UHGV virus genome: UHGV-1374842
Strand: one strand, 5' to 3'
Source of the DNA: a virus
DNA length: 62,663 nucleotides
Positions 54,452 through 54,493 of this stretch are shown piece by piece. The notes under the pieces are model-generated. The model did no database searches. It was not told where the DNA came from and worked only from the letters and a program-made list of their open reading frames with translations. The position numbers were made by a program, and so were the translations under genes. The stretch's first letter is position 1, and each line of letters begins with the position of its first letter.

Positions 54452-54493
54452 GTAAACATAAAGTCCAAGAAATCAAGAGAGTGTTCATTTTTG
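54452..54493 (+). promoter_or_regulatory. conserved promoter-like element GTAAACATAAAGTCCAAGA, then 14 nt, then TCATTTTTG
   Basis: 19-bp identity with 59911-59929 and the same spacing to a TAnnTTTG-like -7 box. Lies 24 nt upstream of the portal ATG. Confidence 0.5.

Follow-up and report, generated by a model that had tools for sequence, protein, structure and literature searches.

A conserved 16-bp box probably marks an activator-type late promoter class in temperate phages of gut Bacteroidales

Introduction

The virus genome UHGV-1374842 carries, directly upstream of its portal gene, a short bipartite element (54452-54493) that recurs in front of other operons. This raises the question of whether the copies form one class of promoter and, if so, what reads them. 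We analysed the whole stretch of 62,663 nucleotides, referred to here as the window. A preliminary description of this DNA had proposed that the element is either a phage-specific late promoter class or an activator binding site, and the comparative evidence on position, register, conservation and lineage variants supports that proposal. The five copies that we found probably represent the upstream recognition box of a phage-specific late-promoter class, in which a host sigma factor would read the -7 element and a phage factor would probably read the box.

Results

The phage and its late operons

The window is a 62.7-kb genome of a temperate podovirus-like phage. A long minus-strand operon holds the early and replication genes, including those for RecT, an exonuclease, a NinB-like protein, an SNF2 helicase, a VRR-NUC protein, a Lin1244-type replication protein, a dUTPase and a methyltransferase. 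Other landmarks are the following.

35838-36251, CI-like HTH_3 protein
37631-38848, minus strand, tyrosine integrase
41241-54440, plus strand, 4399-aa polyvalent protein with ART-PolyVal and InPase domains
54518-56452, plus strand, P22-type portal
56874-58982, minus strand, TerL
60772-62358, SU10-like capsid protein (the SU10_MCP match is weak)

The closest relatives of this phage lay on contigs of Candidatus Cryptobacteroides and Alistipes MAGs, and homologous portals were found in many gut-metagenome contigs of 61-72 kb. The nearest annotated phages were the cultured Bacteroides temperate phages BKO1-TP3, BS-TP4 and BF1-TP2, whose portals were 34-38% identical.

Several other features of the genome deserve mention. 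The polyvalent protein was 5209-5553 aa long in relatives, and its BKO1-TP3 version is annotated as DarB-like. The gene for a rhomboid-like membrane protein (58948-59451, minus strand) lies between TerL and the gene at the TerS position, which is unusual content for a packaging operon. The protein matched Pfam Rhomboid at E 3e-9, has three hydrophobic segments, of which two overlap, and was conserved in BKO1-TP3, BS-TP4 and BF1-TP2. A small plus-strand ORF at ~17479-17785, inside the minus-strand early block, has its own -7 box (TACCTTTG) and looks like a moron. ARAGORN called a 92-nt tRNA-Ala(TGC) at 32788-32879 (minus strand), which may be a false positive or an intron-bearing tRNA, and no Rfam family reached its gathering score anywhere in the window.

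Five copies of a late box

The upstream half of the element is a 16-bp, non-palindromic sequence, GTAAA(C/G)ATAAAG(TCCA), here called the late box, with five copies in the window. Four had been reported before, at 12295, 39404, 54452 and 59911, and all four are real: GTAAASATAAAGTC was present exactly at each position on the plus strand. A fifth copy, on the minus strand at 17214-17199, had been overlooked.

54452-54467, plus strand, late box GTAAACATAAAGTCCA, exact match, upstream of the portal gene (54518-56452)
59911-59926, plus strand, late box GTAAACATAAAGTCCA, before the scaffold-position gene (ATG at 59988) and the capsid gene (60772-62358)
39404-39419, plus strand, late box GTAAAGATAAAGTCCA, before the giant-protein operon (ATG at 39476; 40153-41229; 41241-54440)
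12295-12310, plus strand, late box GTAAAGATAAAGTCTT, upstream of genes 12353-14080
17199-17214, minus strand, fifth late box GTAAACATAAAGAACA, sharing bases with the stop codon of the small gene that closes the early minus-strand operon

The copies at 54452 and 59911 shared 19 identical bases (GTAAACATAAAGTCCAAGA) and equal spacing, as had been noted earlier. Together with its -7 element, the box heads every virion-gene operon in the window, five late operons in all: the portal gene, the scaffold-position gene with the SU10-like capsid gene, the giant polyvalent-protein operon, an operon for a 121-aa and a 921-aa protein, and the block 12353-14080.

Scanning the window with GTAAASATAAAGTC at up to two mismatches gave 5 matches against 0.73 expected, and 0 of 100 shuffled sequences reached 5. 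When the scan was relaxed to three mismatches, 11 matches were obtained against 9.1 expected, the additions being at chance level. The genome-wide search suggested in the preliminary description has therefore added one copy and nothing beyond chance elsewhere in the window. The same description had held that a motif equally common in coding regions would speak against a promoter. This was not the case, with 5/5 copies located in inter-ORF gaps, within the ~5% of the window that is non-coding (~95% is covered by ORFs); two of them overlap the upstream ORF, by just 4 nt. Each box was also co-oriented with its downstream gene or operon (5/5). In a blind search for k-mers that recur at one constant distance before TTT[GC], the late box was the sole family that persisted across adjacent offsets. 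Pattern scans found no late box at the early and lysogeny promoter regions of the window, and no copy near the CI-like gene or the early divergent promoters. One motif thus stands before several late operons, in five copies, with nothing beyond chance level elsewhere in the genome. A reading of the box as an RNA element was rejected, as no Rfam family matched in the window and three of the five boxes are divergent or operon-initial, where no same-strand transcript arrives from upstream.

Register with a Bacteroides-type -7 element

Each late box is followed by an 8-nt -7 box.

54486-54493, plus strand, -7 box CATTTTTG of the portal promoter, in register; ATG 24 nt downstream
59945-59952, plus strand, -7 box TATTTTTG of the scaffold/capsid promoter, in register
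39438-39445, plus strand, -7 box TTGCTTTG of the giant-operon promoter, in register; identical at the equivalent site of the relative L174
12328-12335, plus strand, -7 box TTACTTTG, 1 nt nearer to the late box than at the other sites
17173-17180, minus strand, -7 box TATCTTTG of the fifth site, same spacing; ATG (17168) of the 121-aa gene 4 nt on

The spacing between the two halves, earlier given as 16-20 nt, was instead found to be fixed. In four of the five sites 22 nt separate ATAAAG from a -7 box of the form YAnnTTTG, which starts 18 nt after the 16-mer. The site at 12295 was the exception, with 21 nt after ATAAAG (a distance of 29 instead of 30). The TCATTTG previously assigned to the site at 39404 proved to be out of register, the in-register box being TTGCTTTG, as in L174.

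The Bacteroides sigma-ABfr consensus comprises a -7 element TAnnTTTG and a -33 element TTTG (Bayley et al. 2000, as summarised in PMC7366714). The downstream half of the late promoters follows this consensus, with TTTG in register at 5/5 sites, whereas no TTTG lies ~19-21 nt before the -7 box, where AAGTCC of the late box is found instead. The arrangement TTTG-N19-21-TAnnTTTG occurred nowhere in the window, so the missing -33 element is not peculiar to the late promoters. If the -7 element is set at -7, the 16-mer would extend from about -45 to -30 and ATAAAG from about -39 to -34, and the GTCC at the 3' end of the box would occupy the usual place of the host -33 TTTG. A scan for E. coli-type sigma-70 promoters was uninformative, as that consensus is foreign to this host.

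The predicted 5'UTRs were ~14-32 nt at four sites, in agreement with the 5'UTR mode of 23 nt in B. thetaiotaomicron, where <4% of mRNAs have a 5'UTR of <10 nt (PMC7366714). At the fifth site only 4 nt separate the TTTG from the ATG, and this gap was kept in six genomes: the window (17168-17180, minus strand), L172 (9640-9654), L173 (9640-9654), L174 (9203-9217), L182 (BKO1-TP3, gp32; 16236-16246) and L186 (BS-TP4, gp28; 44869-44880). With so short a distance between -7 box and start codon, the first gene of the fifth operon is predicted to have a leaderless or nearly leaderless mRNA, which would be of a kind rare in Bacteroides.

Conservation in close relatives

The comparison covered the cultured phages, 142 loci centred on homologues of the portal and three (L172-L174) centred on homologues of the 921-aa protein. 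As had been proposed as a check, the element was set against related phages: box, orientation and spacing were kept at equivalent places and the flanks had diverged. Neither the box nor its spacing varied at the equivalent positions of 17 partial genomes from relatives, whereas the flanks were scrambled. Every close relative (portal ≥68% identical) carried GTAAACATAAAGTCCA before the portal and scaffold-position genes in otherwise unalignable surroundings, and the position of the late box ~65 nt upstream of the portal gene was invariant in 12 related loci.

Spacing was identical in 34 of 36 distinct instances collected from the window and 17 related loci, which puts the box in fixed register with the core promoter. 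Across these instances the 16-mer held 1.2-2.0 bits per position (~2 at the first 12 positions), compared with ≤~0.7 bits in the 30 nt upstream and at all spacer positions but one. G1, G12 and C14-C15 reached 1.4-2 bits, and position 6 was C or G. In the 142 portal loci, the distance from ATAAA[GC] to TTTG had a single sharp peak at 30 nt, with 90 cases against 6-59 at the other distances (10-49). A search of 346 kb of related sequence for the 12-mer (≤1 mismatch) gave 47 matches, 40 of which had TTTG or TTTCG in register.

All five window sites had equivalents in relatives, where the encoded proteins were just 46-59% identical. Both L172 and L173 have a box before their homologue of the 121-aa gene, and an equivalent fifth-site box is present in L174. 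In L174 the box also precedes the giant-protein operon (182-aa, 361-aa and 5209-aa proteins), although the gene order differs. On the opposite strand of L172 and L173, a box precedes a GH108 endolysin gene that is followed by homologues of the four genes at 12353-14080. This arrangement supports the earlier suggestion that these genes are late genes. A role of the four as holins or spanins was not retained, as transmembrane segments were predicted in none of them. Within the window no endolysin could be identified, and the GH108 endolysin and a 209-aa gene of L172/L173 were missing after the equivalent box (window 12295-14080 compared with L172 12723-15664).

A 142-aa protein of the window (7735-8163, plus strand) was 72% identical to the product of an L172 gene (18931-19365). 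The L172 gene had an Acb2/Tad1-hairpin Pfam hit (anti-CBASS/anti-Thoeris sponge) and its own late box with a spacing of +1.

When IMG/VR was scanned for exact matches to the 16-mer and to the bipartite pattern, the result was mainly single matches at chance level, with the exceptions of L145 and L148. The fragment L145 was a true relative. L148 (1-8200) was rejected as a promoter locus, its near-copies of the 16-mer having arisen by chance in a coding tandem repeat with a 117-bp period. The late region had no megablast match among INPHARED phages, and a portal search of IMG/VR with a single sequence found no relatives.

Lineage-specific variants in distant relatives

In BKO1-TP3 and BS-TP4, whose portals were 38% identical to that of the window, GTAAAWAGWTAAA followed by 22 nt and TAnnTTT(G/CG) was found in five places, as in the window. 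BKO1-TP3 had four exact copies of GTAAAWAGWTAAA, before the scaffold-position gene, the giant operon (gp57), the portal gene and gp32, and a looser copy before an endolysin-containing operon. BS-TP4 showed the same arrangement, including the equivalent of the fifth site before gp28. Other lineages, represented by contigs of Bacteroides, Phocaeicola and Prevotella, carried variants of the GTTAATnnATAAA type and kept the 22-nt register. In the more distant relative BF1-TP2, no box was recognisable by pattern or by de novo search.

The box variants were uniform inside one genome and differed between lineages, the pattern expected of a co-evolving specificity factor.

Some in-register -7 boxes were TAnnTTCG (TACTTTCG, TATTTTCG) rather than TAnnTTTG. 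Such boxes were located in L182 (BKO1-TP3) at 16232-16239 and PQ571269.1 at 60990-60997, in L186 (BS-TP4) at 44874-44881, in L003 at 15464-15472 and in L081 at 15532-15540.

A hairpin at the portal promoter and a divergent terminase promoter

Two of the sites carry additional elements.

54475-54509, plus strand, hairpin of 12 bp whose loop contains the portal -7 box, with a T-run after it
59884-59891, minus strand, divergent -7 box TAAATTTG, serving the operon 59863->56513 (141-aa gene, rhomboid-like gene, TerL)

In an RNAalifold analysis of 10 relatives the hairpin had 12 pairs, of which 3 showed compensatory (double) changes, and the stem was followed by T-runs in relatives. The hairpin thus has the stem, U-run and compensatory changes of an intrinsic terminator. 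Its loop of 11-16 nt is longer than usual, and a simple terminator scan gave no call. An analogous hairpin of unrelated sequence was present at the portal site of BKO1-TP3 and BS-TP4. We regard the portal hairpin as probably the terminator of the giant gene, overlapping the portal promoter; it might conceivably serve as an operator. Transcripts from the portal promoter would hold the 3' arm only and would therefore escape termination.

In the intergenic region 59863-59988, exactly 19 nt separate the divergent TAAATTTG from the late box at its 5' end, and CAAA(T/A)TTA was found at that 19-nt distance in 8/8 distinct sites of relatives. Given this gap, the reverse complement of the box (GTTTAC) would fall at the -33 position of the divergent terminase promoter. 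For the divergent promoter of BKO1-TP3 and BS-TP4, the opposite end of the box (GTTTAT) would take the -33 role, with a gap of 11 nt.

How the box may be read

We found neither a phage RNA polymerase nor a complete sigma factor. Together with the host-type -7 half, this points to the host polymerase with its primary sigma as the initiator. In the proposed mechanism, host RNA polymerase carrying the primary sigma would read the -7 box, while a sequence-specific factor, most likely phage-encoded and made from the early operon, would bind the late box and recruit or stabilise polymerase in the manner of a class-II activator. Five transcription units would then be switched on together: the portal gene, scaffold and capsid into the tail block, the giant operon, the genes for the 121-aa and 921-aa proteins, and 12353-14080. 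From the sequence we infer the transcription start at these sites, their late timing, and a phage protein as the reader of the box.

The conservation of the box including its G and C positions, its rigid register and the uniform, lineage-specific variants indicate a sequence-specific, co-evolving reader. The lifestyle of the phage points the same way. The phage encodes an integrase and a CI-like HTH protein and is thus temperate. Its late promoters must therefore stay silent without a phage signal, and constitutively strong promoters are unfit for virion genes and, in relatives, lysis genes; this argues for an activator.

These points bear directly on an explanation that needs the host alone, which we consider unlikely. 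According to it, the late promoters would simply be strong host promoters, the A-rich box being a UP-like element or a conserved host-factor site and timing coming from read-through or repression. The location of the box at about -45 to -34, its A-rich sequence (GTAAACATAAAG) and its rigid distance to a host-type -7 element are indeed those of UP-element territory, and no phage regulator among the proteins scanned could be tied to the box. UP elements, which are contacted by the C-terminal domain of the alpha subunit, are likewise A-rich, lie at about -60 to -38 and boost sigma-dependent promoters. However, they are degenerate A/T tracts with no specific dependence on G or C, and the late box does not behave in this way: its G and C positions are as invariant as its A positions, and its variants are uniform per genome and differ between phage lineages. 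The box is also missing from the early and lysogeny promoter regions, and constitutively strong promoters before virion and lysis genes would be intolerable for a temperate phage.

Candidate readers of the box

As possible regulators, a scan of ~60 proteins against Pfam and PHROG detected only the CI-like HTH_3 protein and a 198-aa HTH protein, and nothing sigma-like above threshold. Two proteins were considered as readers.

16803-17168, minus strand, 121-aa protein, first gene of the fifth late operon, directly after the last early gene
23719-24315, minus strand, 198-aa protein with an N-terminal sigma-70 region-4/LuxR-like HTH

The 121-aa protein has an N-terminal AbrB-like/cradle-loop-barrel motif and is a weak candidate for the late activator. 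Its homologues BKO1-TP3 gp33 and BS-TP4 gp27, which align with it, are annotated from structure as AbrB/MazE/SpoVT DNA-binding proteins. Repressors aside, it was the sole recognisable protein of DNA-binding type common to the window, BKO1-TP3 and BS-TP4. A profile of five sequences searched against the PDB had AbrB regulators as its top three matches (E about 0.05); with a profile of 62 sequences searched against PDB sequences the AbrB regulators were gone and the top match was a designed double-psi beta-barrel (E 0.054). The protein had no hit in Pfam, PHROG or NCBIfam, and a single-sequence AF2 model (pLDDT 40) was unusable.

It is conceivable, at rather low probability, that this AbrB-like protein is a new kind of late activator that reads the box and forms a self-reinforcing late switch in a large, prevalent group of gut Bacteroidales phages. 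The protein is encoded by the first or second gene of a box-driven operon with a predicted leaderless first cistron, where the early genes meet the late ones. Its initial supply would come from transcripts that read through from the early operon; afterwards it would turn on all five late promoters, its own included, by bringing sigma-ABfr RNA polymerase to promoters that have no -33 element.

The 198-aa protein is a second, weak candidate. Its HTH had weak matches to Sigma70_r4_2, GerE and ECF-sigma region 4, all below the family cut-offs, and some of its homologues have a precomputed PF08281 hit. Identity was at least 56% across the aligned homologues of the close group. The AF2 model (pLDDT 79.5) gave generic HTH-level matches in a fold search, with E values around 1. 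The IMG/VR locus L175 encodes a 68%-identical homologue, and the 20 kb compared there held early genes only.

This protein is central to another explanation, in which it would take over recognition of the -33 region, as AsiA and MotA do in T4, or act as a partial sigma. The geometry, with the 3' end of the box at the -33 position, would suit such sigma replacement, as would the matches to sigma region 4 and the conservation within the close group. The matches, however, are far below the family cut-offs and cover a generic HTH only, as do the fold matches, and BKO1-TP3 has the promoter class yet no detectable 198-aa homologue. We judge this explanation improbable.

A site over the -33 region could equally block polymerase, and the box might thus be the operator of a repressor that holds the late promoters off; the inverted repeat around the -7 box at the portal site could be taken in the same sense. 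That repeat occurs at the portal site only, however, and the T-run after it fits a terminator, while no box is found near the CI-like gene or the early divergent promoters, which leaves negative control very improbable. A role of the box outside transcription, as a packaging, recombination or replication site, can practically be set aside, since each of the five dispersed copies points at a gene start and keeps register with a -7 box, and since the copies follow the gene starts even in genomes with another gene order (L174, BKO1-TP3).

Discussion

We return to the preferred reading, a phage-specific late-promoter class in which a probable phage factor reads the box, to place it among known systems. 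The late promoters Plys, PI, PP and Pmom of phage Mu are activated by protein C, and Pm by Mor. The resemblance to Mu C lies in a few late operons that share a ~16-bp activator site over the -35 region of a host-primary-sigma promoter, in a class-II-like position; an activator gene at the end of the preceding temporal class would be a further likeness. The Mu sites, however, are dyad-symmetric, whereas the late box is non-palindromic: GTAAACATAAAGTCCA has no self-complementarity, reads more like a direct repeat TAAAC/TAAAG, and so lacks the dyad expected of a site for a dimeric activator of the Mu C or P2 Ogr type. The host sigma and the -7/-33 architecture here are also those of Bacteroidota, and no Mor/C-like protein was present among the proteins scanned.

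The middle promoters of T4, with a MotA box and AsiA, are similar in that an asymmetric box replaces the -35 equivalent at a fixed distance from a host -10-type element. They differ in that the MotA box is 9 bp long, is centred near -30 and needs AsiA to remodel sigma region 4, and in that T4 is lytic. No similarity to MotA or AsiA was found among ~60 proteins scanned against Pfam and PHROGs, which are a part of the ORFs, and such proteins evolve fast. In P2, 186 and P4 the late operons of a temperate phage are likewise co-activated by one small activator (Ogr, B or Delta) through a common upstream motif, but their site is a dyad, TGT-N12-ACA, near -55, and their activators are zinc-finger proteins. 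Compared with ordinary sigma-ABfr promoters, the downstream half fits the -7 consensus and the start-codon distances fit a typical 5'UTR (PMC7366714), but a longer, phage-specific box stands in place of the -33 TTTG and one of the five sites leaves 4 nt before the ATG. The late box is therefore most likely an activator-type late promoter of a familiar kind, as judged from its sequence and position, adapted to the -7/-33 architecture of Bacteroidota.

No description of this box, and nothing on the timing of gene expression in these phages, was found in the literature searched. Temporal transcription of crAss001 has been reported without promoter motifs (PMC8375218), and the word "promoter" is absent from the main text of the isolation paper of the cultured relatives (PMC12694917).

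Among gut Bacteroidales, temperate phages are abundant, and the present group has been little studied. Public metagenomes contained 513 protein clusters homologous to its portal (E ≤ 1e-20), and BS-TP4 was detected in 31% of one virome set (PMC12694917). The late box would provide a signature that parts late from early genes in hundreds of uncultured, mostly unannotated genomes, and a direct handle on the late regulator. It is also a candidate for a phage-inducible, orthogonal promoter part in Bacteroides engineering, and may offer a natural case of how the unusual primary sigma of Bacteroidota is recruited to a promoter without a -33 element.
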